Shown here piece by piece: positions 2,611-60,856 of a stretch of 64,000 nucleotides of DNA. Position 1 is the first letter of the stretch. Each line of letters opens with the position of its first letter. The stretch is from sequence record NC_018854.1; one strand, given 5' to 3'. The position numbers and the translations under genes were made by a program. Under the pieces are notes generated by a model. The model made no database searches, was not told where the DNA came from, and was given only the letters and a program-made list of their open reading frames with translations. This stretch comes from Escherichia phage ECBP1.

Positions 2611-2650
2611 CCTGAATAGTTAGATATGTATTTAAATAGGAGAAATAACC

Positions 2651-2959
2651 TTGAATGAAATTGTTTGTATACTTCCTCAATCAGCTAAGATAGCTGACAG
2701 GAATATCCGTATCCACTTACCCTTTCCATTAAGTAATCCATTCACTCGTAATGAAAGAACCACAGTAGAAGATGTAGAGGTAGCTTATGAAGCTTACCTC
2801 CGTAATCGTCTTATTAGTGGGGACAAACTAATTACAGCAGAGATGGAAAGGATTGCATCCTTTGTAACAGATAGTACAGGCAAGCCTGTTGGCTTAATTG
2901 GTACAGAGTCTGATGTTAACGTTATTCGTAAAATATTAATGGAGGCATTAAATGGCTAA
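2651..2959 (+). CDS. hypothetical protein, DUF4326-like paralog lacking the Cys/His motif (TTG start)
   Basis: SNPF...VEVAYEAYLRNRL resembles GNPF...VIAKYKVWLQEQI of ORF 4159-4539. Confidence 0.4.
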   Translation: MNEIVCILPQSAKIADRNIRIHLPFPLSNPFTRNERTTVEDVEVAYEAYLRNRLISGDKLITAEMERIASFVTDSTGKPVGLIGTESDVNVIRKILMEALNG

Positions 2960-3182
2960 ATATAAGGTAATACGCTTTGCAGATAATGAACGTGGTATTG
3001 GTGCAGAAGTAGAGAAAAAAACATTCTTTGGAACCAGTACATGGGTAAAAGTTAGTACACATGGACACAGTGAGTGCTTCGATAAATGGGTTAATAAAGA
3101 AACCGGTGTATCCGGTTATGCTGATACTACCCAATCAGAGATTAATGACTTCTATACTGCCAATCACATTACTAAGGAATAA
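2952..3182 (+). CDS. hypothetical protein
   Basis: 76-aa ORF; start overlaps upstream stop. Confidence 0.4.
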   Translation: MAKYKVIRFADNERGIGAEVEKKTFFGTSTWVKVSTHGHSECFDKWVNKETGVSGYADTTQSEINDFYTANHITKE

Positions 3183-3187
3183 ACAAA

Positions 3188-3409
3188 ATGTTGTTCAGCA
3201 CTAATTATGGTATTTGCCCAATTTGCAATAAAGGAAGAGGAGTTGCTAATCATAAGAAGTGTAGTCGTATATTACAGAAACAACGGAATCAGAAAGAATG
3301 GGATAAGGTGCTGAATAATCAGCATAAAGAAGAGAATCAACAGATGGCTGTTAAAGCATCTACTCAACGTATTCGCCGTATTAACTATATACAGGGGTAT
3401 CAGAAATGA
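3188..3409 (+). CDS. small basic zinc-ribbon-like protein
   Basis: CPIC...KKCS cysteine pairs; K/R/Q-rich. Confidence 0.4.
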   Translation: MLFSTNYGICPICNKGRGVANHKKCSRILQKQRNQKEWDKVLNNQHKEENQQMAVKASTQRIRRINYIQGYQK

Positions 3410-3663
3410 TTATTGCATATCCTACAGGCAAGACTGTGGAATATATGAAGCATACTATTCAAGTGCCTCACTGGGTTAAGTATATAGCATTACTACCTCG
3501 TCAATATAAGAGTGCTAATACCTCACTAATAGGATTCTCTAAAAAACCTAAGCTAACAGAAAACAATATCTGGGTATCCTCTGGGAGACAAGAAGAGATT
3601 GGTTTTTGTGATTTGAGTATTGTCAATAATAACGTTTACCTAACGCTGGAGAAAGTAGCATGA
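3406..3663 (+). CDS. hypothetical protein
   Basis: 85-aa ORF with ATGA-type overlap to neighbours. Confidence 0.4.
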   Translation: MIIAYPTGKTVEYMKHTIQVPHWVKYIALLPRQYKSANTSLIGFSKKPKLTENNIWVSSGRQEEIGFCDLSIVNNNVYLTLEKVA

Positions 3664-3851
3664 ATATTGAAAATTATGAAATCACTTTAGTAACAGCAGA
3701 CAGTAAAACTGTGATTAACAAACAATTAAATAATGACCCTGAGATGCTTAACTGGGTTGCAGAGCAATTTGCTGATGTTAACTCAGCACAGGTAACCCTA
3801 CGGAATATGTCAGGAAAAGTAGTAGCATTTACAGGCAAGGAGCCAGTATGA
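3660..3851 (+). CDS. hypothetical protein
   Basis: 63-aa ORF in a tightly packed operon. Confidence 0.35.
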   Translation: MNIENYEITLVTADSKTVINKQLNNDPEMLNWVAEQFADVNSAQVTLRNMSGKVVAFTGKEPV

Positions 3852-4162
3852 AAACTATTCTAGTAATCCATGATTCTACGTTTACTGATGTAGATAAGAT
3901 GATGCGTAATATTGATTATGTATCTCAGACAAGCCAAGCATTCAATGAAGAGTTTACTCTGTACTGCAATGCTGAATCTCCTCTGGTTCCTATCCTTAAG
4001 GAATCAGGTCTACCATTCTCTACAGAGAACTTCCCGGAAGAACCAGACTATGTAATCTCATTTATCTATGACTTACATGATGGTTCTGAAACTAGTGAAT
4101 TAGCTATGAACCAGTGGCGTAGTAAACGTCCTGTGTTTGCATTTCAGGTACTTAAACCATGA
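3848..4162 (+). CDS. hypothetical acidic protein
   Basis: 104-aa ORF with overlapping start and stop. Confidence 0.4.
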   Translation: MKTILVIHDSTFTDVDKMMRNIDYVSQTSQAFNEEFTLYCNAESPLVPILKESGLPFSTENFPEEPDYVISFIYDLHDGSETSELAMNQWRSKRPVFAFQVLKP

Positions 4163-7495: not shown

Positions 7496-7694
7496 CTTGG
7501 AGGTAACAACTATGCTAATCCCTTTTGAAGTAATCTCTCAGTTAATACTGATAGTTTTATCTGTACTGGTTCTGTCTACAATAGTTCATGCCCACAAATC
7601 TAAGTTTGCTTATTACTACTATGGAGCATACTCACTAGGCTGCTTTGTAATGGCAGGATGGATAGCTTTTGCTATCTACTGTGTAAACAACTAA
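7479..7694 (+). CDS. small membrane protein
   Basis: 71 aa with two hydrophobic segments. Confidence 0.4.
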   Translation: MRHIFCLEVTTMLIPFEVISQLILIVLSVLVLSTIVHAHKSKFAYYYYGAYSLGCFVMAGWIAFAIYCVNN

Positions 7695-7721
7695 CCCTCC
7701 TAACGGAGGGTTTATTTTTTT
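7695..7721 (+). terminator. intrinsic terminator
   Basis: ccctcc-taac-ggaggg followed by tttattttttt. Confidence 0.65.
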
Positions 7722-7768
7722 ACATGTCATGTATACTAACTCTGCTATTTACTTATGAGGAAATTGAT

Positions 7769-8602
7769 ATGCCAACTTTGAAAGTAGGTTTTAACAAAAC
7801 CACTAATGTTGCAACTGTACTGGATGCCAGTGGTTCTATCCCAGGTGGTTCCGTAGAAGTAGGAACCTTTGTACACCCAGATGCCACTTACCCTGATAGC
7901 TTAGTTATCTTCCATGGTGTTCGTGACCTGCTGTATAAACGCTCTGCTAAAGATCCTTCTAAAGAAGGCTTCTGGCCTAACAACATCGTGGATATGCAGT
8001 CTATCTCTATTGATATGAAAGCTACTCCACGACTGACTATTGCTACCAAACTGCCTCGTGTAGTCTCTACTATCGAAGGTGAAGACATCAACTGGCACGT
8101 TGATGTAGCAGGTGGGAAAGCACCATTTACTTATAAATGGCAATTCAAAGCTGATACTGCTGGAGCAGCATTCGCTGATATTGATTCAGGTGAGAACGAA
8201 TCCGCTGCTACTGCAACACTGACTCTTAATGACGTAACAGCTACTTCTGCTGGTACTTACAAAGTGATTGTTACTGATGCTAATGGAACCACGGTAGAGG
8301 ATGAGTCACTATTAGCTGTAGGCTATTACGAAGCAAGTTCACTGGTAGCTACTCCTGATTCGCTGGCTCTGTCTGTTGCTGCTGATACAACTGCTGGTAA
8401 GACTGTAACAATTGTTGCTATGCCTGTTGGTTCATCTTCTGGTGCTTTATCTATCAAGACTGCTCCAGATTCTGGTCGTGCTACGGCTACCATTGCTGGT
8501 AACGTACTGACAGTTAAGCCAGTGGCTGCTGGTGATACTACTTCTGTAGTAGTTACCAATGGTACGGTAGATATAACTATCCCTGTTACTGTTGCAGAAT
8601 AA
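7769..8602 (+). CDS. Ig-like (Big_2-like) tandem-domain protein
   Basis: Start moved from track 7658 to ATG 7769 (GAGG RBS; track start runs through a terminator); beta-rich T/V/A repeats such as TVTIVAMPVGSSSGALSIKTAP and VVVTNGTVDITIPVTV. Confidence 0.5.
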   Translation: MPTLKVGFNKTTNVATVLDASGSIPGGSVEVGTFVHPDATYPDSLVIFHGVRDLLYKRSAKDPSKEGFWPNNIVDMQSISIDMKATPRLTIATKLPRVVSTIEGEDINWHVDVAGGKAPFTYKWQFKADTAGAAFADIDSGENESAATATLTLNDVTATSAGTYKVIVTDANGTTVEDESLLAVGYYEASSLVATPDSLALSVAADTTAGKTVTIVAMPVGSSSGALSIKTAPDSGRATATIAGNVLTVKPVAAGDTTSVVVTNGTVDITIPVTVAE

Positions 8603-10962: not shown

Positions 10963-12138
10963 ATGAACCAATTTCCTCAGCACACACTTAGTGATGAACA
11001 ACTCATGCGCGAATATGACCGTATTCAGGCGCAGGCGTTTCTCGGACGCAGTGCTGCCTTCTTTGGTTCATTACTATGTAGTCTTAAATTCTCATGGAAA
11101 CGTGAGGATTGTCCCACTGCATGTACTGATGGGATAGAACTCCATTTCAACCCAGACTTCTTTATCTGGATGTGTCCAGATGCAAGGGAAACAGTATTAA
11201 TGCATGAACTATGGCATGTGGCATATCTACATGACATCCGTCGTGGAAGCCGTGACCCGGAAGTCTGGAACCAGGCATGTGACCACTTCATTAACCTTCA
11301 GTTAGAGGAGGATGGTTACAAGTTCACTGGTATTAATGAAGGCATTTGCAAAGACCCTCAATATAAAGGATGGGTCGAAGAAGACATCTACGATGACCTG
11401 ATGAAGAACCCTCAGAAAAGGCAGAAGCCGTCAGGGGGTGCTGGAGCAGGTCTTGCTGGCGACATGAAATCCCCCACTTCGGGACAGTCCCAGGGTGCTG
11501 TCGTCAACAACGTAGTACGTGCAATGCAGAGCCAGAAGATGGCTGGTGGAACAATGCCCGGTAAGGGTGCTGGTCGTATGGAAGAGGTTATTACCCAATT
11601 CCTTAAACCAGTGGTTCCATGGCAAGAAGTACTCATGAACTTCTTTACCGACATTGATGACACTCACTATACGTGGGCCAGACCTAACCGTCGTTACACT
11701 GACATTTATCTACCTTCCCTGGAAGATGATGAAGGACGTCTACGACACCTAGCCTACTTTGAGGATGTATCTGGTTCTATTAGTAGTGCTGACTCTCTGC
11801 GTTTTAACTCAGAGGTTGCCTACGTTAAGAGTCAATTCAATCCTAAGAAGATGACCCTAATCACCTTCGACGATGTTATCCAGGAAGAAATAGACATCAC
11901 TGAAGAAGATACTTTCGAAGAGATTAAGATTACTGGACGTGGTGGTACAAACCTGGAACCAGTACGCGAATGGATTATTAAGAATAAGCCAACCGCTGCA
12001 ATCATATTCTCTGATATGTATGTTCGTCCAATGGAAGAATTGCCATTTGATATTCCTATCATCTGGTGTGTTCTGAATAATCCTAATGCTACCGTACCTT
12101 TTGGGGAGGTAGTTCATATCCCTAAAGGAATGAAATAA
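10963..12138 (+). CDS. von Willebrand factor A domain protein (N4 gp25-like)
   Basis: MIDAS-like DVSGSIS; zinc-metalloprotease-like HELWH in the N-terminal part. Confidence 0.6.
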   Translation: MNQFPQHTLSDEQLMREYDRIQAQAFLGRSAAFFGSLLCSLKFSWKREDCPTACTDGIELHFNPDFFIWMCPDARETVLMHELWHVAYLHDIRRGSRDPEVWNQACDHFINLQLEEDGYKFTGINEGICKDPQYKGWVEEDIYDDLMKNPQKRQKPSGGAGAGLAGDMKSPTSGQSQGAVVNNVVRAMQSQKMAGGTMPGKGAGRMEEVITQFLKPVVPWQEVLMNFFTDIDDTHYTWARPNRRYTDIYLPSLEDDEGRLRHLAYFEDVSGSISSADSLRFNSEVAYVKSQFNPKKMTLITFDDVIQEEIDITEEDTFEEIKITGRGGTNLEPVREWIIKNKPTAAIIFSDMYVRPMEELPFDIPIIWCVLNNPNATVPFGEVVHIPKGMK

Positions 12139-12674: not shown

Positions 12675-12884
12675 ATGTCAGTATTTCAAGTAACTCATGC
12701 AACCTCAAATCTACGTTTAACCATTAATGCTGCAAATGTAGTTGCAGTGGAACAGATTCCACTGTCTGATTGTGCACGTATTACGCTTGTAAATGAAGGT
12801 ACTTTGGATACCAAAGAAAGCTATCGTTCAGTACGCAATTACCTGAAAAAAGCTCTTGCTCCTGCAAGCAAAGACGCTGAGTAA
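12675..12884 (+). CDS. hypothetical protein
   Basis: 69-aa ORF; hairpin after its stop. Confidence 0.4.
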   Translation: MSVFQVTHATSNLRLTINAANVVAVEQIPLSDCARITLVNEGTLDTKESYRSVRNYLKKALAPASKDAE

Positions 12885-12894
12885 GTAGCTGCCT

Positions 12895-12921
12895 AAATAG
12901 CCCAGCATAGTTGGGCTATTT
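12895..12921 (+). terminator. hairpin, possible terminator
   Basis: 10-bp stem aaatagccca / tgggctattt with a 7-nt loop; no strong T-tract. Confidence 0.35.
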
Positions 12922-12957
12922 GAGAAGAAACTAACTCAACCTCACATAGGAACCATC

Positions 12958-13200
12958 ATGGAATCTTTAGCAGCAATCCTTGTTTTCTTATTCATATTAG
13001 CTGTATACCTTATCCCTACTATCATTGCTTTTGCACGAGGCCATGCCTCTAAGTGGGGTATTGGTGTACTCAATATCGTATTAGGCTGGTCATTAGTATT
13101 CTGGGTAGTAGCACTGATTTGGGCACTGTCTAATAAAGGTCAGAATCAAGTTACAAACGTAACTGTTGTTCAAACCAATAGTGGCAGTAAAACAGAGTAA
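12958..13200 (+). CDS. superinfection-immunity-like small membrane protein
   Basis: IPTIIAFARGH...LNIVLGWSLVFWVVALIWAL matches the recalled Imm-superinfection family signature; two TM helices. Confidence 0.55.
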   Translation: MESLAAILVFLFILAVYLIPTIIAFARGHASKWGIGVLNIVLGWSLVFWVVALIWALSNKGQNQVTNVTVVQTNSGSKTE

Positions 13201-13276
13201 CTAACCTAAGCATCATTGCATAGTGGTGCTTGTGGAAGTTACTTCCAGCTCATTGCTTATCCATCTCCTAACCCAA

Positions 13277-13305
13277 GCCCACCTAACCCGTGGGCTTTTT
13301 TATTT
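13277..13305 (+). terminator. intrinsic terminator
   Basis: gcccac-ctaaccc-gtgggc followed by ttttttattt. Confidence 0.6.
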
Positions 13306-13320
13306 ACAGGTACTCTTATG

Positions 13321-13704
13321 TCAAGCAGACAAAATGGTAAGTCTATCCTGCAAGGACTGGACTTAAGTAAGCTGGAACAAACTGCAATGCTTACTTTAGG
13401 TAAAACCATACATGACCAAGTGGAAATGGATGGGATTAGTTCTGATGTCTATGCAAAAATGCAGGCTCTTATTCAGAAAGGATGGCCCAGCAGAGTATTT
13501 AATATACCTACATACATTCCCCCAGAACCCCATCTGAAATCTAAGGTAGACCGAATCATAGATAAGTTCTGGCTTAACCCATGTGGAGATGACATGCATC
13601 TTTACCTGGCTCAAATACAAAAGAATCCTCGTACTAAGGATGTGTTTAAAAGTAAGAGCACTACCCATCACTACCCATGGTATAGAAGGGGTAGTAAATA
13701 CTAA
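13321..13704 (+). CDS. hypothetical protein
   Basis: Start moved to the ATG after the terminator (track start 13216 would read through it). Confidence 0.45.
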   Translation, partial: SSRQNGKSILQGLDLSKLEQTAMLTLGKTIHDQVEMDGISSDVYAKMQALIQKGWPSRVFNIPTYIPPEPHLKSKVDRIIDKFWLNPCGDDMHLYLAQIQKNPRTKDVFKSKSTTHHYPWYRRGSKY

Positions 13705-14147
13705 TGCGTATCCCATTCCTAAGAAAAAGGGAACGAAATCCTGTTCTTTATAATAAAGGCATAGAGGATGAGTATGAACTCAACCGTAAAGCTCGTTCCT
13801 ACACAACAAAACTATTCATGGGGACTAACAACCCTGATAGATTATTGGACTTTGTTTTTGAACAAGTCTTTATCATATACAGCTTAGCTATGTCTGCTGG
13901 TTCACGAGAAGTAAGTGATAAGGCAAGACATGCTCTCTGTATGCTCCGTAAAGAGTATGAAGCCCTCATGTATGAAGACTTGTACTCCTTTAAAGAAGAA
14001 ACCGCTGTAGCATGTTCTGTGGCTCTTACTGAAGGTGTAGCAGTATTACAAGAACTACCCCGTAGTGAGTTTAAGCTGGTATACGTTCAGGTTAAGAGAA
14101 TCACAGAGACAAGAAGTGGTATCACTAACTATCTAAGGTCATTCTAA
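13704..14147 (+). CDS. hypothetical protein
   Basis: 147-aa ORF; stop/start overlaps. Confidence 0.45.
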   Translation: MRIPFLRKRERNPVLYNKGIEDEYELNRKARSYTTKLFMGTNNPDRLLDFVFEQVFIIYSLAMSAGSREVSDKARHALCMLRKEYEALMYEDLYSFKEETAVACSVALTEGVAVLQELPRSEFKLVYVQVKRITETRSGITNYLRSF

Positions 14148-15091
14148 TGATTAAGGCATCAGTAATTGCAGATTCCGTTCATCCAGAAACAGGAACCCGT
14201 ATCACAACCTTTGAATTGGTTTATCCCCGATTCATTCACAGTGAGTTTATGACTCACCGTGTATTCAACCGCAATGCTTCAAGTAGCCGTGCTATTCCTA
14301 CCTCTAAGTTAATCGAACAGGTTCGCAATGAACCAGTGATGCCAAGTCACTGGGGCAAGAACCAGAAAGGTATGCAAGCAGATGGAGAACTCACTCCTAT
14401 GGAGATTGAGGATGCTAAGTTTATCTGGGATAACGCTGCATCTGCTGCTGCTGTGTATGCTGAACAGCTACGCCGTGGGCAAGTACATAAACAGATTGTT
14501 AACCGTATTCTGGAACCCTTCACACATATCCGTGTAGTGGTAACCTCAACTAGCTGGGCTAATTTCTATGGACTGCGTGACCACAAAGATGCACAACCGG
14601 AGATTCGTGAACTGGCTCAAGCAATGCGTAAGGCACATGAAGAAAGCACACCAAGAGCATTACCGTATGGGCAATGGCATTTGCCATATATTGCTCATAT
14701 TGACCGTGTTGGGGCTTACAATTTCTGCAAACGTAATCGAATTACACGCGATGAACCAAGTGATGCAGAAGTGCATGGACTACTTCTCAAGGTAAGTGCT
14801 GCACGCTGTGCTCGTGCTTCCTATAACAACTTTGAGGGACGTCCCTCTACTATCGAAGAAGATCTTGGCTTATTCGCTAAGTTAGTGGAAAACCAACCTA
14901 TTCATGCTTCACCAACGGAACATCAAGCTACGCCTATGAACCTTGGTGAGAAGTATGTGAATAACATGAACCCAGTTACCTGGGAACAAGGTGTTACATC
15001 CATGGATAAAGAAGGGAATCTGTACTCAGGTAACCTGCTCCACTTTATCCAATTCCGTAAATTAATTCCTGGTGAGACTATTACTGAATGA
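14147..15091 (+). CDS. thyX: flavin-dependent thymidylate synthase
   Basis: ThyX-type motif THRVFNRNASSS (RHRxxxxxxxS-like). Confidence 0.7.
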   Translation: MIKASVIADSVHPETGTRITTFELVYPRFIHSEFMTHRVFNRNASSSRAIPTSKLIEQVRNEPVMPSHWGKNQKGMQADGELTPMEIEDAKFIWDNAASAAAVYAEQLRRGQVHKQIVNRILEPFTHIRVVVTSTSWANFYGLRDHKDAQPEIRELAQAMRKAHEESTPRALPYGQWHLPYIAHIDRVGAYNFCKRNRITRDEPSDAEVHGLLLKVSAARCARASYNNFEGRPSTIEEDLGLFAKLVENQPIHASPTEHQATPMNLGEKYVNNMNPVTWEQGVTSMDKEGNLYSGNLLHFIQFRKLIPGETITE

Positions 15092-15327
15092 AAAAACTAG
15101 CTCTATACGCAATGCTAATTAGTACCCTACTAACACTGACCTACGCATACAAAGTTGCCTTTGTCGTAGAAACAGATATGCAGTTCATTCGAGCTAGTAT
15201 TCTGTTCTTTGTAAGCGAGATTGGTTTATGGTGTGTTTACTACTTTGCTCGTGACTACGAAGCAATTCGTGAGCAAGAAGAAGTGAAAAAACAAATGATA
15301 CGATTTGTAGAACAAAATCGTAAGTAA
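15088..15327 (+). CDS. small membrane protein
   Basis: 79 aa with two hydrophobic helices. Confidence 0.45.
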   Translation: MKKLALYAMLISTLLTLTYAYKVAFVVETDMQFIRASILFFVSEIGLWCVYYFARDYEAIREQEEVKKQMIRFVEQNRK

Positions 15328-16130: not shown

Positions 16131-18698
16131 ATGTTAGTTGCAGATACCAACGAAATAGCTACCTCAGCGACACTGGGTGGCAAAGAAACAATTGCCTTTG
16201 GCATCTCAGATGACTCGGCATTCTTCCATGTATTAAGTACTTCCCTGTATAACAATCCTACTCTGGCAGTAGTTCGTGAGACTATATGTAACAGCTGGGA
16301 TGCTCATATTGAGGCAGGTAAAACTGATACCCCTATTCGTATCACCATTGATACAGACAACTTTATTACCTTCCGTGATTACGGTAGTGGTATTCCAGAT
16401 GAACTCATTGGTTCCATTTATGGTGTCTATGGTGCATCTACTAAGAAAGCCAACATTAGTGTTACTGGTGGCTTTGGTCTGGGATGTAAATCTCCATTCG
16501 CTTATACAGATAGCTTCCAGGTTACTTCATGGAACCAAGGAAAGATGTCTGTATATAACGTAGCTAAGGCTGCGATTGAGAATGATGGTAAGCCGGGTAT
16601 TGTCCCTATTGTTACCAATATACCTACTGAGGAATCCGGTCTGGAAGTTAAATTCCAGTTAGGCAAACATGATTTAAATACCTTTATTCATTACATCAAG
16701 TCAATCGTATTTAACGGTGAGATTAAAGCTGAGCTTAGTATCCCTAAACTCGTTAAAACAGAAGAAGGTAATAGTATTCAACAAGGTGACTACACTTTAC
16801 TGAATACGCTGGGCATGTCATTTGAACCTGGTTCATATGATATGTCTGATAGATGGTATCAGGGCTATATGGGTAGCAGTAACATATACGTTCGCTACGG
16901 TAATGTAATGTACCCAATTGTATCCAGCCCAGCTAGTGAAGAAGCTGTAGGTCTTATCCTCAACTTCATGAATATTATTGGTGCTGGCAATTTAGTAGTT
17001 CAGGCTGCACCAGACACCTTAGCTATTGCTCCTAGTCGAGAAACACTGTCTAACCAGAAGTTAACCGACGATGGTATTACTACTCTATGCGTAGATTTAG
17101 TAGACCGTATGGAGAAAGAGATTAAGGCTAAGATTCCTGAAGCCATTAAGCAGGTTGAAGAATATGCCTCTAAATCCTCTACTCGCTTTTGGGAATATCC
17201 ATCTTTCTTGGGTGCTGTTACAGATAGAACTGTTCAACGCTATATGTCTTCTAGTTTATGGACTAAACAACGTAAGCATCACATAAAGCACTGGCGTAAC
17301 TTATCCAATAAGGCGTTATTAGCTCGTCCTGAATATGCAGGTCTTAAGAAGCTGTATGGTAAGGCTATGCATGCTCTTAAGGATACTCGTGAGGAAAGTA
17401 CATACTCCCCATTCTCAGAATTAGTATATCGCCATCTGCATTTACCTCGGCTTGCTGCTTTAAAAACCTCTGGTATTAAGTGGTCTGGTTACATAATGAA
17501 TCAAGGCAACCGTGTTGACTTGGTAAAAGGTAAACTTACTGACTACTTTAGGATATACAATAACTCTCACCAAAGTATTGGCATATTTACTACCAAGAAC
17601 GTTGTAGTTACCCGACGTTTATCTGACTGTGCAGACTCTTTCTCATACTTCCCTGAATACAATCGAGGTGACCTGGAGCGTACAGCTTTTGTTCATGTCG
17701 TTGGTCCTAAGAAAGGTGCAGCAGAGGAAGCTGTAGCTAAGTTCACTGCTATGGGTTATCGGGTGATTGACCTTACTCAATATAATGAGTGGGACAAACC
17801 AACTAACTTCCGCAGGGAACAAGCTAAGATAGCTGCTGAGAAACGAGCCAAGACAATAGCTGCCAATAAAACCAAAGCAGGTGGTAAAACCAATGCTCTG
17901 ATTTCATTGAATGCAGTTCTTGGTGCTACCCAGGTACGTAATAAAAATGGGGATTGGGAACCCAGGCCGTATATTCAGAAAGAATTTGCTGACCCAAGTC
18001 GTCATGAGAAATATGGTTTCGTTGAGATAGAACAGCCTAAGTACTACGTACTAGCCAATCAGGTTGGTTCTGGTAGTCCTGTAACTGCTCGAATTGGAAC
18101 CATGTGGAAATGGTATGAGTTGCCTGATGAGATGAAAGCAGAGACTGTTGTCTGTCGTAATCAAATCGAAGCTAACAAGGCCAAACGACGAGGTGCTATC
18201 CACATTGATGATGTTCGCTTTAGTGAATTGATGTCTGTTATTACCAGCAAAGGCTTCAAGAAATATGTTACTGAACATCGCATCGGTATTCTTGAATACG
18301 TAGGACTGGATGACAGGGAATACTGGGAAATTCTAGACATACTGGGTCTAACCTTCAAACCCTTACAGAATCTGATTTTCAAACCAGAGTATGAATGGGC
18401 ATATGACTTTTTACGAAATCGACCACACGACAACAAAGAAAAACTTGTTGAAATGGGTTGTATTAAGTCAGTTGATGACTTAGAGCCATATGTAAAACTG
18501 GTTAATCCCCGTAACCATAAGTACTTTAAAGTACTTAATGATTACAAAGAATTATTCAGTTATAGCTGGAATAAAAATGACATCCTACAGACGCTGGACT
18601 TAGGTAGTTTGGTCAAACACCTTAAGAAGAATCCAGAGGATATTCCTGGGTTTAAGTCCCTCTACCGTAATCGTCTAAATAAACTGAAAGGTAACTAA
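16131..18698 (+). CDS. rIIA: rIIA-like protein with N-terminal GHKL-type ATPase fold
   Basis: N-box-like ICNSWDA and G1-box-like DYGSGIP; large protein before an rIIB-sized partner. Confidence 0.5.
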   Translation: MLVADTNEIATSATLGGKETIAFGISDDSAFFHVLSTSLYNNPTLAVVRETICNSWDAHIEAGKTDTPIRITIDTDNFITFRDYGSGIPDELIGSIYGVYGASTKKANISVTGGFGLGCKSPFAYTDSFQVTSWNQGKMSVYNVAKAAIENDGKPGIVPIVTNIPTEESGLEVKFQLGKHDLNTFIHYIKSIVFNGEIKAELSIPKLVKTEEGNSIQQGDYTLLNTLGMSFEPGSYDMSDRWYQGYMGSSNIYVRYGNVMYPIVSSPASEEAVGLILNFMNIIGAGNLVVQAAPDTLAIAPSRETLSNQKLTDDGITTLCVDLVDRMEKEIKAKIPEAIKQVEEYASKSSTRFWEYPSFLGAVTDRTVQRYMSSSLWTKQRKHHIKHWRNLSNKALLARPEYAGLKKLYGKAMHALKDTREESTYSPFSELVYRHLHLPRLAALKTSGIKWSGYIMNQGNRVDLVKGKLTDYFRIYNNSHQSIGIFTTKNVVVTRRLSDCADSFSYFPEYNRGDLERTAFVHVVGPKKGAAEEAVAKFTAMGYRVIDLTQYNEWDKPTNFRREQAKIAAEKRAKTIAANKTKAGGKTNALISLNAVLGATQVRNKNGDWEPRPYIQKEFADPSRHEKYGFVEIEQPKYYVLANQVGSGSPVTARIGTMWKWYELPDEMKAETVVCRNQIEANKAKRRGAIHIDDVRFSELMSVITSKGFKKYVTEHRIGILEYVGLDDREYWEILDILGLTFKPLQNLIFKPEYEWAYDFLRNRPHDNKEKLVEMGCIKSVDDLEPYVKLVNPRNHKYFKVLNDYKELFSYSWNKNDILQTLDLGSLVKHLKKNPEDIPGFKSLYRNRLNKLKGN

Positions 18699-18702
18699 TC
18701 TG

Positions 18703-20751
18703 ATGAAAATCGAACTGATTTCTATCATCGCACTGGCAGTTGACAGTCGTAACCTTACATTGTGGAAGCCCGATGGCTCCACGATTGTATATCCTCAGAG
18801 CGACCCACGGGTTGCTCGCATTGTATCTGAAGCTCAAACTAAAGGTCTGGGAACTACCAAAGACCAAATAGAAGTAAACATCGCACCAGAAGTAAACCTG
18901 CGTACTGAATATCTGGAAGCAGAGAAGAACACTAACGGATTCGTCCGTTTCTTCAAGGTAGCTAAAGCTAAACTCAAAGAGTTCTTTCAGGATGGTACAG
19001 GTGTTCCACCTGACCGTATTATTTCTGATATTAAGCTGGGTAATCCTACTAAGACACTGGTGTCTAAAGCTATGGATACCTTTCTGGCTGTACAGGCCAA
19101 TGAACCAGAAGTAACTGTAACAGATGGTTGTTATGACAAACGTGACAATCTGATGTGGGTTACTGGCTGGGACAAAGACCATAACCATCCTGCACTGGTT
19201 CGTTTTATTAACGACGTAATGGGTTGTGGGTATGAATATACTAACACCATGCTCAAACAGGAATGGCCTGTTGCAGTTCGTGCAGTATCTGATGATGAAA
19301 TGGGTGAGTTTGCTAAACAAGCCGAACACATCAAAGGGGTTCATGTTGTATTCACCAGTCGTAAACATACCCCACCACCTTACATTGAAGTAACTAAAGT
19401 TACGAACCAGGATAAGCTGGCTGCTGCCTCGGAGAAACTAGCTGCATTGGGTGCTATTAGTACTGATGACGCTAACTTCCACACCGATGTGAAGGAAGAT
19501 GAAGTGGTTGTTGCTGTTACCAACAATGGGGTTATCCCCGGAGTTGAGAACCTGCAACGTCACTTACGTCAGTCTGCCAAGCTGAAAGACTACAAGGGCT
19601 TTACTAAGTTCCTTGAACGTCTGGCTCCGGTTATTAAAGACCGTCTGCACTCAGTAGAAGACCTGATGAAGTTCATGGAAACTGCTGAACTGCCTATTGC
19701 CGATGATGGTTCAATCCTGTTCCTCAAACGCCTTAAGTCTAGTGGTATAGAAAACGGTAAACGTGTATTCGTTGACTGTCACTCGGGTAACATTCGTCAA
19801 TGGGTAGGCTGTAAAGTGCAGGTACGCGAAGACCTGGTAGACCCTGACCGTCGTCAGGATTGCTCTAACGGTCTGCACGTAGCATCCATGAGCTATCTAC
19901 GTGGCTTCGGTGGTAATGTGACCATCCTTGGTAAAGTAGCACCGGAAGATGTATTTGCTGTTCCTCAGTACAGCACCAATAAAATGCGTGTATCTGCATA
20001 TCATATTATTGCTGAACTACCGGAAGAGGAACGTAATAATGTTAATAATGGTATCTACCTGTCTAAGACAGAAGTAGGTAAGAAATTGCTTAATGATGCC
20101 ATCGTTGGGAACCATAGCTCACCTACCACACTTATTATGGTTGGGGGTCATTATGGTACTAACCTCAAATACACTAATCTCACATCTGGTTCTGTAGAAC
20201 AATTCCGTACAGTTGCTAGCAAAGAAGCACTGAACATGGAAGAGTCACTGAATGAAGCTGTAGCTGCTGAACCAGTGAAGGCTACTGACCTTAAACCTGT
20301 TATTAAGAAGGCTCCTACTGTGAAAGAACAAATCCAGGAACTGGTCAAAGAGTTCCTTACTGCAACAACCCCAGAAGATAAGTTAGCTGCTGCTGACCTT
20401 CTGGTAGAACTGCGTGGTAAAGCTCGTAAGCCTTGGGCTGCATTCGATGTGGGTAATGATGTAGTAGCTAAGATTGCTGATGTACGTGCTACCTATACAG
20501 CTAAGCCTATTGGTAAACCTAAAGCTGTTAAGCAGGATAAGACAGTTAAACCTACTAAATCTAAGCCTGCTATTAATAGTACTAATGCCAACATCATCAG
20601 AGGTTATCTAGCAGATAGTGGTATGTCTGATTATCAGAAAGCCCACTCCATTCATGACCTGAAACGTGCAGCTAAGAAGTCTTATGCTGCTATGGGTCTT
20701 ACTGAAGAAGAGTGCAAAGCCATTGATAAGCTGAAGCACCACCTTAAGTAA
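18703..20751 (+). CDS. rIIB-like protein (assignment by position only)
   Basis: 682 aa directly downstream of the rIIA-like gene; K/A-rich C-terminal tail. Confidence 0.4.
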   Translation: MKIELISIIALAVDSRNLTLWKPDGSTIVYPQSDPRVARIVSEAQTKGLGTTKDQIEVNIAPEVNLRTEYLEAEKNTNGFVRFFKVAKAKLKEFFQDGTGVPPDRIISDIKLGNPTKTLVSKAMDTFLAVQANEPEVTVTDGCYDKRDNLMWVTGWDKDHNHPALVRFINDVMGCGYEYTNTMLKQEWPVAVRAVSDDEMGEFAKQAEHIKGVHVVFTSRKHTPPPYIEVTKVTNQDKLAAASEKLAALGAISTDDANFHTDVKEDEVVVAVTNNGVIPGVENLQRHLRQSAKLKDYKGFTKFLERLAPVIKDRLHSVEDLMKFMETAELPIADDGSILFLKRLKSSGIENGKRVFVDCHSGNIRQWVGCKVQVREDLVDPDRRQDCSNGLHVASMSYLRGFGGNVTILGKVAPEDVFAVPQYSTNKMRVSAYHIIAELPEEERNNVNNGIYLSKTEVGKKLLNDAIVGNHSSPTTLIMVGGHYGTNLKYTNLTSGSVEQFRTVASKEALNMEESLNEAVAAEPVKATDLKPVIKKAPTVKEQIQELVKEFLTATTPEDKLAAADLLVELRGKARKPWAAFDVGNDVVAKIADVRATYTAKPIGKPKAVKQDKTVKPTKSKPAINSTNANIIRGYLADSGMSDYQKAHSIHDLKRAAKKSYAAMGLTEEECKAIDKLKHHLK

Positions 20752-20763
20752 TAGCCTGTTCAA

Positions 20764-20794
20764 ATAGCCTCACTTATAATAAAGTGAGGCTATC
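20764..20794. promoter_or_regulatory. perfect 31-bp palindrome centred on TATAAT
   Basis: atagcctcactttat-a-ataaagtgaggctat read directly; sits between the rIIB-like stop and the HTH gene. Confidence 0.4.
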
Positions 20795-20813
20795 TTTGAA
20801 GAGGAAATAAGCT

Positions 20814-47385: not shown

Positions 47386-49332
47386 TTATCGAGGTTGCAT
47401 ATAGGGAGGTAAACCCTCTGCTAATTTTCGATAACGTTTAGCTCGTTCTTCATCTTCACGACTACGTTCACGTTCTACTGAAGCATTAGAACGGAAGTTC
47501 TGTGGAACCAGATTTCCCTGGTCAGCTACCACAGTATTAACAGCAGCATCTAATGCAGCTCGTGCCCTTGCTAACTCAGCCTCACGAGCAGGGATAGTAG
47601 CAGCAAGCCCGCTTTGCCCAGCAGCTACACGACGACGAGTATCAGCAAGTAAGGCTTCTGCTTGTGTTACCTGGTTCTGAGCATTAGCAATATTACCCTG
47701 TACCTGGGTAAGAACATTATCACGAGCAGTAGCTTCAATGCCTTCCCCACGACGTACTGAACGTGCTAGTTCTCTGGCAACGGTATCATCAATACGAATA
47801 CCTCCACCACCTTCATTGGAGATGAACGGATTAAGTGCATCAAGTGCTCGACTAATCATACCTTCCGGTACGTTGGTAGTAGACTGCTTAAGAATCTCAG
47901 CAGCTACAGCAGGAGACTGCCCGGATTCTTGCATAACATCATTGAGTCGAGCAATCATCCATCCTTTTTCAGAACCTTTAAAAGCATCCTTAAGAAGACG
48001 GTCTGCTACTTCACCAATAGTAGAGTTGTCACGTAATGCACGAGCATAATTAGCAGTAATGGTTCCAGTGTTATCTTCAGACTGACGTGCAGCAACTGTA
48101 TTGCCTGCCATGTTTGAGACTACTTGCTGAGTCTGTAACTGATCAAGGGGTGCTCCTACTTCTGCCTGTGCAATTAACTGGCGTGCTTCACTCCACGGCA
48201 TATCCTTATAACCACCTACACCTAAGTCAGGCAATGCAGCCCAGGTCTTAGAAAGGTTACCATTCTTACGGTCATTGAAGATTGCTTCTGCTATTTTGTC
48301 CTGTACTTCAGGAGTCATTTGCTGATTACGCCAATCTGAACCAAGCACTTTAGGGGCATAGTCTTCCAGAGTAGCTTTATTAATCTGAAATGCACCTACA
48401 GGAGAATGACCTTGTGACGGGTTATTAATCATACTCTGTTGATGATTAGTAACCTCACCTAGTGTCATCTCAGTAATAGGCTTATCAGTAGCAGCAAAGG
48501 TATAGGTTGCATCATAAGGAGAACCAGAACGAGTACCAGCAGTTCCCGGAGCAGAGCCAGAAGGAGACGTAGCGTAAGTACCTGGGAATCTCTGGTTTAC
48601 ACCTCGCATGATTGCAGCACGTACACCTGGAGAAGCATTCTGCATAGCAGACTCTGCCAATGTAAGAGCATCCATAGGAGTGGAAGCACTACGGAAAATA
48701 TCCGTCAGTATACCGGATGCAGCTTGTGAATCAGCATCATTACGTTGAGCCACACCCAAATCAAAGCGGTTCTGTGCTTGGTTAATAGCCTGACCACCTT
48801 GCCCTTGAAGACGGCTCAGCATATCCAGTTGTTGGTCGGCAGGGAGTGCAGATAATGCATCACGGGTTTGGTCCAATGCAGTATTAATACGGTTCTGGTC
48901 ACCAGACTGATAAGCCTCAGACAATAAACGAATAGCTGGAGAAGCATTATCTAATGCAGAGTCAGTATTCTGTAAACGACCAAAACGATAAGCATTGTAG
49001 TCATTAATTCCCTGCTGACCTTGTTGAGTCAGAAGAGTACTTGCTCGCTCATCCAGATTCTGCAGGGTATGTTGGTTTACGAGTGAAGGGTCAACCCCCT
49101 GGAACAATGCACCGGATGCCAGAGCATTACGATACTCAGTAGGGTCTTGATACTGCATAGCATTCATCATGACGGCATTGCCAGCCTCCTGCTTGGCAGC
49201 GTTCTGGAAGTTACCCAGTGCATCACTTAAGCCGGAGGTGGCGTTACCAATCATGTTGCCAAATGTGCGAATGCTGTCACCAACTCCAGAGAAGTTAGGT
49301 GCATCAACATTACGCCATGTAATTTGAGCCAT
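47386..49332 (-). CDS. virion protein (N4 gp51-like by position)
   Basis: 648 aa directly upstream of the vRNAP in the late operon. Confidence 0.5.
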   Translation of the reverse strand: MAQITWRNVDAPNFSGVGDSIRTFGNMIGNATSGLSDALGNFQNAAKQEAGNAVMMNAMQYQDPTEYRNALASGALFQGVDPSLVNQHTLQNLDERASTLLTQQGQQGINDYNAYRFGRLQNTDSALDNASPAIRLLSEAYQSGDQNRINTALDQTRDALSALPADQQLDMLSRLQGQGGQAINQAQNRFDLGVAQRNDADSQAASGILTDIFRSASTPMDALTLAESAMQNASPGVRAAIMRGVNQRFPGTYATSPSGSAPGTAGTRSGSPYDATYTFAATDKPITEMTLGEVTNHQQSMINNPSQGHSPVGAFQINKATLEDYAPKVLGSDWRNQQMTPEVQDKIAEAIFNDRKNGNLSKTWAALPDLGVGGYKDMPWSEARQLIAQAEVGAPLDQLQTQQVVSNMAGNTVAARQSEDNTGTITANYARALRDNSTIGEVADRLLKDAFKGSEKGWMIARLNDVMQESGQSPAVAAEILKQSTTNVPEGMISRALDALNPFISNEGGGGIRIDDTVARELARSVRRGEGIEATARDNVLTQVQGNIANAQNQVTQAEALLADTRRRVAAGQSGLAATIPAREAELARARAALDAAVNTVVADQGNLVPQNFRSNASVERERSREDEERAKRYRKLAEGLPPYMQPR

Positions 49333-59169: not shown

Positions 59170-59697
59170 TTATTCCTGTTCAAAAAGTTTACGGTCAGCC
59201 TGAATCTGTTTACCCAACTCAATTAGTTGGCTGTCACGGAGTCTAACAGTTGCCCGGAGTTCTTCAACCAAACGTCTGCCTTCTTCAAGACTGTTGTCGA
59301 GTCTGGCTGCATGGCTTGCAAGACTTCTGCACTCAAAGGTTCCGGCTTCGGCTTGACGTTTATATACCGATGCTCGTCTTTCAGACTGTTGCATCCGGCT
59401 GTCATAATCACTGCTAACGCGAGCAAGCTCGCTTGCGTAATTACTCTCAGCCGTCTGCAACCGGGAAGTGAGTAACCCGACTTCGTAACTATGGTTTCTT
59501 TGGAGAGCATTGTATTTGTCCTGTAATTTTTGTAGTGCCTTCTGATCTTCAACCTTTTGGGCATCCCACTTCTTTTGAACAGTAGACTGTCCATTGGAAT
59601 TACCCCAAAAGTAAATGGTGGCCCCGAGGACCACCACCAGAAGATAAGGCCAACCTTTAGAGATTAGCATCTTCATTACATGCCTCCAGTGGCACAT
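59170..59697 (-). CDS. i-spanin (Rz-like)
   Basis: N-terminal TM helix then coiled-coil-like sequence; start may be at an internal Met. Confidence 0.5.
59223..59510 (-). CDS. o-spanin (Rz1-like lipoprotein) embedded in the +1 frame of the i-spanin gene
   Basis: [12 protein letters not shown] lipobox-like segment, then Pro-rich KPKPEP; start uncertain (track ORF 59223-59594). Confidence 0.4.
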   Translation of the reverse strand: MLSKETIVTKSGYSLPGCRRLRVITQASLLALAVIMTAGCNSLKDEHRYINVKPKPEPLSAEVLQAMQPDSTTVLKKADVWLKNSGQLLDSVTAN

Positions 59698-60292
59698 TGC
59701 CTATTCGGTTAGCTACCCAACCATACGTAAAGTCTGGCATGTTTAATGAGGTGTAGTGGTTAAGTTGTTTAGCATCAAGTAACTTAATCATTACCTGACA
59801 TGCTGCAACTTTGCCTCGTTTTTTCTGTAATGCTTTATATGCATTAACAGTACTTGTACCGACTTTACCATCAACCTGTATTTTAGGGTAGTCTTTGCCA
59901 TCACGGGACATTTCATTAAGAGATTGCTGCAACCACTTAGCCGGACGGGTTACACCCGTATTAACACCAGCATCTACCAGCTTATGTGTTACAGCAGGAG
60001 ATATATCAGCGAAGGCTACGAAGTTAGGCTTAAGTACGTAATCATCAATGTATATCTCAGCAGCCATCTCTTTAGATAAACCCTTCATAGAACCATCCCA
60101 GCCATACTCAGTAGCCAGAACTTCTTTGTGAGATTTAGCTACAGCTTGGGTAATACCATGATTGGTTTCACCACCTGGGTCACGAGGATTATTTACATAT
60201 CCCCCTTCCATATAAAACACTGCCCCCAGGATAGCAGCGACAACTCCTCCCACTGCACCACCTTTCGTAGCAAGTTTCTGTTTAGCTTTCAT
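59657..60292 (-). CDS. signal-anchored (SAR-type) endolysin, GH108-like N-acetylmuramidase
   Basis: N-terminal GGAVGGVVAAILGAVFY then EGGYVNNPRDPGGETNHGIT. Confidence 0.6.
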   Translation of the reverse strand: MKAKQKLATKGGAVGGVVAAILGAVFYMEGGYVNNPRDPGGETNHGITQAVAKSHKEVLATEYGWDGSMKGLSKEMAAEIYIDDYVLKPNFVAFADISPAVTHKLVDAGVNTGVTRPAKWLQQSLNEMSRDGKDYPKIQVDGKVGTSTVNAYKALQKKRGKVAACQVMIKLLDAKQLNHYTSLNMPDFTYGWVANRIGNVPLEACNEDANL

Positions 60293-60542
60293 GTGAATCT
60301 TCCTTTGATCGGAATCGTATTAATCTGCCTACAATATTTAAGGCAAACAGCGCGATTGCAATATTGGAACCATGGGGAATATCTTCCAGGATGTGACGAG
60401 GTAATCCTGTCAGCATTGGTTGAATGATATCTATGGTAGAAAACATAATTAACCCGAGCGTACTAATCTGGATGGATGCCCACTTCCAGCATCTTTTCCA
60501 GTTAGGTACTAACTCTACTTTTCTTTTTAGCCTGCGAACCAT
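60282..60542 (-). CDS. holin-like membrane protein (two TM segments)
   Basis: ISTLGLIMFSTIDII and IAIALFALNIVGRLI with charged C-terminus; start at internal Met (track 60282-60608). Confidence 0.35.
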   Translation of the reverse strand: MVRRLKRKVELVPNWKRCWKWASIQISTLGLIMFSTIDIIQPMLTGLPRHILEDIPHGSNIAIALFALNIVGRLIRFRSKEDSHES

Positions 60543-60856
60543 GCGAATATCTCCCGTCTTGCAGCAGCCAATACACCAATAATTGCACCTGCCCCAGCCC
60601 ACACCCACTTACCAAAAATTCCAGCACCAACAACTTTATGCTTAATGGTGATGAACTCTTCAATAGTAGGTTCATTCTTAGCTAAGCTATCCTCCACATT
60701 TTTTAGTCTATTGCCTATGTCATTGATTGAATCCCGTAGTTCTACCAGAGTTTCCTCCAGCTTCTCACGATCCTGCCTGTCCCTTGTCTGGTTCTCAAAC
60801 AGAGTCTTCAATCGTTCCTCCAGTCTGACTAGAAGCAGTTCACCTGATTCATTCAT
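60527..60856 (-). CDS. coiled-coil protein with C-terminal TM anchor (possible lysis regulator)
   Basis: Charged helical N-terminus then GAGIFGKWVWAGAGAIIGVLAAA. Confidence 0.4.
   Translation of the reverse strand: MNESGELLLVRLEERLKTLFENQTRDRQDREKLEETLVELRDSINDIGNRLKNVEDSLAKNEPTIEEFITIKHKVVGAGIFGKWVWAGAGAIIGVLAAARREIFAWFAG

Follow-up and report, generated by a model that had tools for sequence, protein, structure and literature searches.

The window analysed in this work, a stretch of 64,000 nucleotides of the Escherichia phage ECBP1 sequence (NC_018854.1), carries at positions 12958-13200 of the plus strand a gene, imm, whose product almost certainly belongs to the Imm-type superinfection immunity family (Pfam PF14373, PHROG 1039). 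The best explanation of the data, to which we assign a probability of roughly 0.6, is that the gene product is a stand-alone Imm-family inner-membrane protein, which would block the entry of secondary phage genomes, i.e. that it would mediate superinfection exclusion in ECBP1-infected cells. What is established for this gene is that it belongs to the family, that it is conserved, syntenic and under purifying selection, and that it retains both residues reported to be important in T4 Imm.

The imm gene and its product

The open reading frame starts with the ATG at 12958 and ends with the stop codon at 13200 (+ strand). It is preceded by an AGGA Shine-Dalgarno-like motif, read from the sequence at 12948-12951 (+), 6 nt before the start codon. 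The description of this CDS as one encoding a stand-alone PF14373 protein is based on the ORF listing, on Pfam, PHROG 1039 and BLASTP searches and on dN/dS values. The complete 80-amino-acid sequence of the protein is MESLAAILVFLFILAVYLIPTIIAFARGHASKWGIGVLNIVLGWSLVFWVVALIWALSNKGQNQVTNVTVVQTNSGSKTE, and the motif IIAFARGH...LGWSLVFWVVALIWAL, which had been quoted for the product in the original prediction, matches it exactly.

Two transmembrane helices had also been claimed for the protein, and the predictions agree with this. The hydropathy profile has two hydrophobic stretches with peaks at approximately residues 3-26 and 34-58, the basic loop R27-G-H-A-S-K32 lies between them, and a polar tail follows the second one. 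In the AlphaFold2 model, which was built from a 15-sequence alignment and has a mean pLDDT of 75, helices are predicted at residues 2-17, 19-27, 32-42 and 46-57, and the tail is predicted to be disordered from about residue 60. The breaks between the predicted helices imply that each hydrophobic stretch would have a kink, the first at P20 and the second at G43-W44-S45. A cytoplasmic position of the basic loop between R27 and K32, with the N-terminus outside, would fit its composition.

Membership in the superinfection immunity family

A Pfam search, proposed in the original prediction as a check of the family assignment, found PF14373 (Imm_superinfect) with 61.6 bits (gathering cutoff 27.9, E 6.4e-17), residues 16-57 of Imm being aligned with the entire model (positions 1-42 of 42). 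No other Pfam family exceeded its cutoff. T4 Imm, the founding member of both PF14373 and PHROG 1039 (NP_049660 / UniProt P08986, taken from NC_000866), scored 58.2 bits on the same model. In PHROG 1039 ("immunity to superinfection") the ECBP1 protein matched profile positions 109-187 with an E-value of 5.1e-30, and T4 Imm matched the equivalent span (positions 109-188) with an E-value of 6.6e-32. Direct comparison of the two proteins by BLASTP gave an E-value of 2e-10 over residues 1-75, an essentially end-to-end alignment; the identity is only 27%, which counts to some extent against a shared exclusion function. The assignment to the Imm-type family was thus borne out by Pfam, by PHROG 1039 and by the BLASTP match to T4 Imm.

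Other searches with Imm were negative. NCBIfam yielded nothing significant, and there was no match among the sequences of PDB chains. When the AlphaFold2 model was compared with the PDB using Foldseek, the only hit was SemiSWEET at E 9.3, a meaningless match. In PADLOC-DB 0 families were found at E<=1, and this lack of a matching PADLOC model must also be counted against the exclusion function.

The likeness to T4 Imm extends beyond the domain. Both proteins are stand-alone and similar in size (80 vs 83 amino acids), have two hydrophobic stretches and begin with ME[ST]L, and both are encoded by virulent coliphages outside the late structural genes. The core common to them can be written as Y-x-x-P-x-x-I-A-x-x-R-G ... 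N-x-x-x-G/N-W-S ... W ... I-W. Helix 1 of T4 Imm contains an insertion of 6 residues that the ECBP1 protein lacks, and the variable C-terminal tail of ECBP1 Imm is unrelated to the tail of T4 Imm.

T4 Imm, a 9.3-kDa protein of the inner membrane, stops genome translocation and acts beside Spackle, a periplasmic protein inhibiting the gp5 lysozyme (PMC7677548, PMC11436027, PMC6832632). A 2026 preprint (10.64898/2026.03.06.709160) reports co-purification and a cryo-EM map of T4 Imm in complex with the helical-bundle domain of the gp29 tape-measure protein, and proposes that Imm prevents formation of the inner-membrane conduit. In the same work the topology of T4 Imm was determined experimentally (inner membrane, N-terminus periplasmic), and the substitutions R33A and W50A were found to reduce exclusion (preprint 10.64898/2026.03.06.709160). 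The residues R33 and W50 of T4 Imm correspond to R27 and W44 of ECBP1 Imm; in the alignment R27 never varies and W44 almost never. Both are encoded in the region specifying the Imm_superinfect domain (residues 16-57; 13003-13128, + strand), which was delimited by the Pfam envelope, the alignment and the residue mapping.

To judge from its sequences, PF14373 is a family far wider than "phage immunity". It comprises 8,491 50%-identity clusters at E<=1e-3, and elsewhere it is fused as a membrane module to other domains such as LemA+TPM, zinc-ribbon and DUF4429+SHOCT (proteins P0207, P0133, P0220 and P0099). One further protein, P0091, matches PF14373 in two stretches. Because the family is so large and is fused to unrelated domains, the presence of a PF14373 domain is not enough to guarantee exclusion, and the size and many contexts of the family speak against the exclusion function proposed here. 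The argument for exclusion rests on the further likeness to T4 Imm, i.e. on the stand-alone architecture, the size, the N-terminus, the phage context and the conserved functional residues.

It could be, although we find it unlikely, that Imm is a generic two-helix membrane module with some other role, for example modulation of a host membrane protein or transporter or minor regulation of lysis, and that the name "immunity" was merely carried over from T4. The number of PF14373 clusters and the anchoring of unrelated domains such as TPM/LemA, Zn-ribbon and SHOCT would fit this reading, and so would a weak, sub-threshold Pfam match of Imm to DUF3302 and the statement that T4 Imm resembles a holin (PMC6832632). 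However, the likeness to T4 Imm in architecture, size, N-terminus and early/middle context, as well as the presence of both tested residues, is more than a shared membrane module would lead one to expect, and stand-alone homologues of about 80 amino acids are found in T-even relatives, in Obolenskvirus and in siphoviruses. Moreover, a dedicated holin and a lysis regulator are encoded elsewhere in the window.

A holin role of Imm was considered separately and was rejected, the window containing a complete N4-type late lysis cassette (holin, SAR-endolysin and Rz; homologues of gp60-63) at 59179-60808 on the minus strand, 46 kb from imm. Imm had no match among the holin families of Pfam and PHROGs, and imm is not part of the late lysis cassette.

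Relatives and prior annotation

The ECBP1 window represents a Gamaleyavirus (Schitoviridae, Enquatrovirinae). Its first 25 kb share approximately 96% nucleotide identity with PD38 and Bp4, and the 4 kb around imm match over 45 records at 90-94% identity. The position of imm, between the homologues of N4 gp27 and gp28, is kept in Gamaleyavirus and Moovirus. ECBP1 imm is an ordinary orthologue of a gene that has already been annotated in dozens of related N4-like coliphages. In Bp4 the orthologue is described as [quoted passage not shown] (YP_009113230), and equivalent immunity annotations are found in IME11 (IME11_45), SP5M (gp32), PhAPEC5, PhAPEC7 (gp28), PBM-2, nithesis, St11Ph5 and the Moovirus Moo19 (gp41). 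The EC1-UPM genome paper of 2013 refers to a "putative membrane immunity protein, IPR016410" (PMC3853248; AGC31537). Since Bp4, IME11, EC1-UPM and other phages carry these labels, the finding is already known at the level of annotation. As a genome feature imm adds nothing new, the membrane-immunity label in G7C-like phages being more than ten years old. In the literature we found no experimental test of an Imm-family protein in any N4-like phage.

The Gamaleyavirus orthologues are 84-96% identical in amino acid sequence to ECBP1 Imm, the Moo19 protein is about 65% identical, and the hairpins flanking the gene are alike. The orthologues differ by a few substitutions in helix 1, by A or S at position 56 and by carrying either of two C-terminal tails. 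All 75 close database homologues contain PF14373, and they are mostly located on contigs of about 72 kb. By tblastn, stand-alone homologues were detected in T-even relatives infecting Klebsiella, Citrobacter, Salmonella and E. coli, in Acinetobacter Obolenskvirus (60-62% core identity) and in several siphovirus groups, thus stand-alone homologues of about 80 amino acids recur across many virulent phage lineages.

The wording of the original prediction, which placed an immunity-like protein in an otherwise lytic genome, implies an oddity that does not exist. In T4, a virulent phage, imm belongs to the early genes and has no connection with prophage repressor immunity (PMC7677548, PMC6832632). 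Because T4 Imm is the early product of a virulent phage, and stand-alone homologues are common in virulent phages, finding Imm in a lytic genome is unremarkable. The gene was wrongly taken as a marker of temperate lifestyle in a paper on the related phage ST4 (PMC9404725).

Purifying selection and variation of the C-terminal tail

The core of Imm (residues 1-61) is almost invariant in nine orthologues, whose genes contain many synonymous differences. Pairwise dN/dS values calculated over codons 1-61 for the nine relatives were between 0.03 and 0.32, with dS values reaching approximately 1.7 in the comparison with Moo19. We conclude that imm is a real gene under strong purifying selection.

The C-terminal tail (residues 61-80, window positions 13138-13197) is polymorphic, it occurs in an 80-aa form (..NQVTNVTVVQTN..) and in an 86-aa form (..SQTTIVNVGSGNQYNVSQT..). 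In Bp4 Imm ends early, at 67 amino acids, and only the variable tail following the domain is missing.

These data also bear on the possibility that imm is a decaying or non-functional passenger brought in by horizontal transfer, which we consider very improbable. Such an origin might be suspected from the absence of imm in N4, from its insertion in an intergenic gap between duplicated hairpins and from the shortened C-terminus in Bp4. However, the core is intact in the nine genomes compared and in the 75 database homologues, what Bp4 has lost is confined to the variable tail, and the dN/dS and dS values quoted above effectively refute the passenger reading. The G+C content of imm is the same as that of the neighbouring genes; a signature of recent horizontal transfer was looked for and rejected on the ground that this G+C content is not anomalous.

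Genomic context

The gene has a good ribosome binding site, and is located on the same strand as the nucleotide-metabolism and rIIA/rIIB genes. Its upstream neighbour is the homologue of N4 gp27 (12675-12884, + strand, 69 aa), which was identified by tblastn (E 1.7e-4) and by synteny. The downstream neighbour, a homologue of N4 gp28 (13318-13704, + strand, 129 codons including the stop), was identified by tblastn (E 5e-11) and by the annotated starts in the relatives. A longer, TTG-initiated ORF of 162 amino acids (13216-13704) was rejected, it would cross the terminator described below, and the starts in the relatives put the true ATG at 13318. Further N4 homologues in the window include those of RNAPII (gp15/16), rIIA and rIIB (16131-20748, about 3 kb downstream of imm), the virion RNA polymerase gp50, the ejection proteins gp51 (the C-terminus of which is encoded within 47509-49332) and gp52, and the lysis proteins gp60-63.

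Two side observations were made on the genes of this region and their N4-like counterparts. The gene resembling N4 gp25, which encodes a VWA/metallopeptidase-like protein, is a single intact ORF of 391 amino acids in the window (10963-12138), and its counterpart in Bp4 (positions 2624-4107 of the Bp4 excerpt) is represented by three CDSs, two of which are labelled "HNH endonuclease"; the Bp4 gene is probably split or mis-annotated. In N4, gp18 (7668-7982 of the N4 excerpt) is labelled "superinfection exclusion, similar to P22 gp17", and gp19 (8057-8263) is a membrane protein. Neither gp18 nor gp19 had a tblastn match in the window, whereas Imm is lacking in N4, and the two genera may carry different accessory exclusion genes.

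Hairpins around imm

The original prediction had described imm as flanked by hairpin terminators. The hairpins are real, but the T run after the upstream one is short, the one directly downstream (13207-13232) has no T run, and the canonical terminator is found farther on, at 13275-13303.

The upstream hairpin (12894-12922, + strand) is located just past the stop codon of the gp27-like gene, and consists of a 13-bp stem and an AUA loop (dG -19.5 kcal/mol, z -4.1). In an alignment comprising Gamaleyavirus, Moo19 and N4, 97% of the cells are paired and four pairs are changed on both sides, a level of covariation matched by 0 of 500 shuffles. This hairpin is likely to be a leaky terminator or an RNA-stabilising hairpin. 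Since N4 has no imm but retains this hairpin, with compensatory changes, the hairpin belongs to the 3' end of gp27.

The second hairpin (13207-13232, + strand) directly follows the imm stop codon and has an 11-bp stem; folding of the segment 13195-13265 gave a dG of -23.6 kcal/mol and a z of -3.8. It aligns with the single hairpin present between gp27 and gp28 in N4, and the sequence downstream of it also matches N4 (TGGAAGTT..CATTGCTTA). The gp27-gp28 spacer of N4 is 113 bp long (4035-4147 of the N4 locus compared), and contains one hairpin, followed by TATGGAAATTCC...CATTGCTTA and then by the terminator. In the window the terminator at 13275-13303 (+ strand; 13275-13297 in a shorter delimitation) is a canonical intrinsic one with an 8-bp GC-rich stem and T6, which was identified by terminator scan, by folding and by alignment with N4. 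It is common to ECBP1 and N4, and the records of SP5M, PhAPEC5 and PhAPEC7 carry a terminator annotation for it.

The hairpin motif can be described as CCTAA-stem-GCATAGT-stem-TTG.G.AAG. Two copies of it bracket imm, and one copy occurs in N4. When the ORFs of N4 were searched in six frames with the family HMM, no Imm homologue was found (best E 0.54). Because the hairpin is present twice here and once in N4, imm looks like a cassette in the gp27-gp28 gap, with the hairpin either duplicated or imported, and the two copies suggest that the cassette may have been inserted with duplication of the hairpin. The sequence data also suggest that the hairpin itself may have a conserved function at the RNA or DNA level.

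It had been proposed that imm might be separately regulated. A scan for sigma-70-like promoters, whose scope does not extend to N4 RNAPII middle promoters, found none on the + strand between 12000 and 14300. Support for separate regulation is weak, because the upstream hairpin predates imm and has a poor T run, and no sigma-70-like promoter was found between this hairpin and imm. Read-through from upstream, possibly attenuated, would be a simpler reading of imm expression.

A hairpin with a 12-14-bp stem is present also at 20762-20795, after the rIIB homologue (ATAGCCTCACTT..AAGTGAGGCTAT). It resembles the upstream imm hairpin in starting with ATAGCC, and TTTGAAGAGGAAA follows the hairpin. It may be one of a recurring set of elements of intergenic punctuation.

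Mechanism and target

If Imm of ECBP1 acts in exclusion, the course of events could be the following. The protein would most likely be produced from the rightward early/middle transcription unit, together with dCTP deaminase, ThyX and rIIA/rIIB, and would most likely enter the host inner membrane via its two hydrophobic segments. When a second phage adsorbs to the infected cell, Imm would prevent its genome from crossing the inner membrane, as it is the case for T4 Imm. In this scheme the membrane location and topology of Imm, the time at which it is made, its target and the exclusion phenotype itself are inferred.

The proteins SieA of P22 and gp15 of HK97 belong to temperate phages and are expressed from the prophage. 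By description, their proposed mode of action is like that of Imm, both being small inner-membrane proteins that halt the incoming genome, and the target of HK97 gp15 is the tape-measure protein (PMC11436027, preprint 10.64898/2026.03.06.709160).

T4 gp29, the only defined target of an Imm protein, has no homologue in the window, which covers 64 kb of the approximately 72-kb genome and leaves about 8 kb outside (best tblastn E 3.3, best phmmer E 0.37). This observation speaks against the exclusion function; it must be noted that it bears on the mechanism of self-exclusion, and not on the family membership of Imm. ECBP1 would deliver its genome through the gp50/51/52 ejectosome of a podovirus, whereas T4 uses a contractile tail. 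In the ejectosome of N4-like phages gp52 is located in the outer membrane, gp51 forms the periplasmic tunnel, the N-terminal domain of gp50 is also part of the structure, and the hydrophobic C-terminus of gp51 was proposed to span the inner membrane (PMC12633501). Since T4 Imm is reported to bind a tape-measure protein and the window has no homologue of that protein, the target would have to be either the N4-like ejection proteins or the tape-measure proteins of competitors. In the case of self-exclusion, Imm would act on the homologues of the gp51 C-terminus, which would insert into the inner membrane, or of the gp50 N-terminal domain. In the case of cross-exclusion it would act on myo- and siphoviruses that compete with the phage, through their tape-measure proteins.

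As a tentative and rather speculative possibility, Imm might have been retargeted in Gamaleyavirus and Moovirus, so that it would bind the gp51 C-terminus or the N-terminal domain of the vRNAP gp50, and would stop the entry of both the genome and the vRNAP of a second N4-like phage. Imm may also be a weapon that a podovirus uses across families, against competitors which have a tape-measure protein, e.g. T-even phages. On a related point, the RefSeq record of N4 labels gp57 (14084-15301 of the N4 excerpt) as "tail length tape measure protein". This gene has the major capsid gene on one side and the portal gene on the other, a position that suggests the label to be an annotation artefact.

Another way to account for imm, to which we give somewhat less credence than to a generic membrane role, is that Imm would not chiefly block DNA entry but would guard the envelope of the infected cell against the damage caused by secondary adsorption, and would in this way stabilise delayed lysis or lysis inhibition together with rIIA and rIIB. 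The lysis phenotypes of T4 imm mutants are usually regarded as consequences of the block of DNA entry, thus this reading and the main one overlap and are not mutually exclusive. The phenotypes in question are early collapse of lysis inhibition and decreased resistance both to lysis from without and to "secondary traumatisation" (PMC6832632). Homologues of rIIA and rIIB are present in the window, as described above, and lysis inhibition linked to superinfection occurs in N4-type phages (PMC12642591). However, N4, which displays lysis inhibition, has no Imm homologue in any frame, and needs only its lysis cassette for lysis inhibition (PMC12642591). A role in envelope protection is weakened by N4 showing lysis inhibition without Imm. 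That N4, with its superinfection-linked lysis inhibition, manages without imm (PMC12642591) also has to be set against the exclusion function, which nevertheless remains our preferred reading.

Significance

Phages of the genus Gamaleyavirus are used, or have been put forward, for therapy and biocontrol. The presence of an exclusion gene matters for the design of phage cocktails, and such a gene should not be read as a marker of temperate lifestyle. The Imm orthologues offer a handle on the superinfection-exclusion system of N4-like phages (PMC12642591). What remains mildly interesting is the target of Imm in a type of phage that does not have the one known target of the family. As T4 Imm has been reported to act on the tape-measure protein, the Imm proteins of podoviruses devoid of a tape-measure protein provide a natural test for a general block of channel formation. 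If the retargeting of Imm proved to be true, the PF14373 module would be a general and adaptable blocker of membrane-channel formation by phages across tail types.
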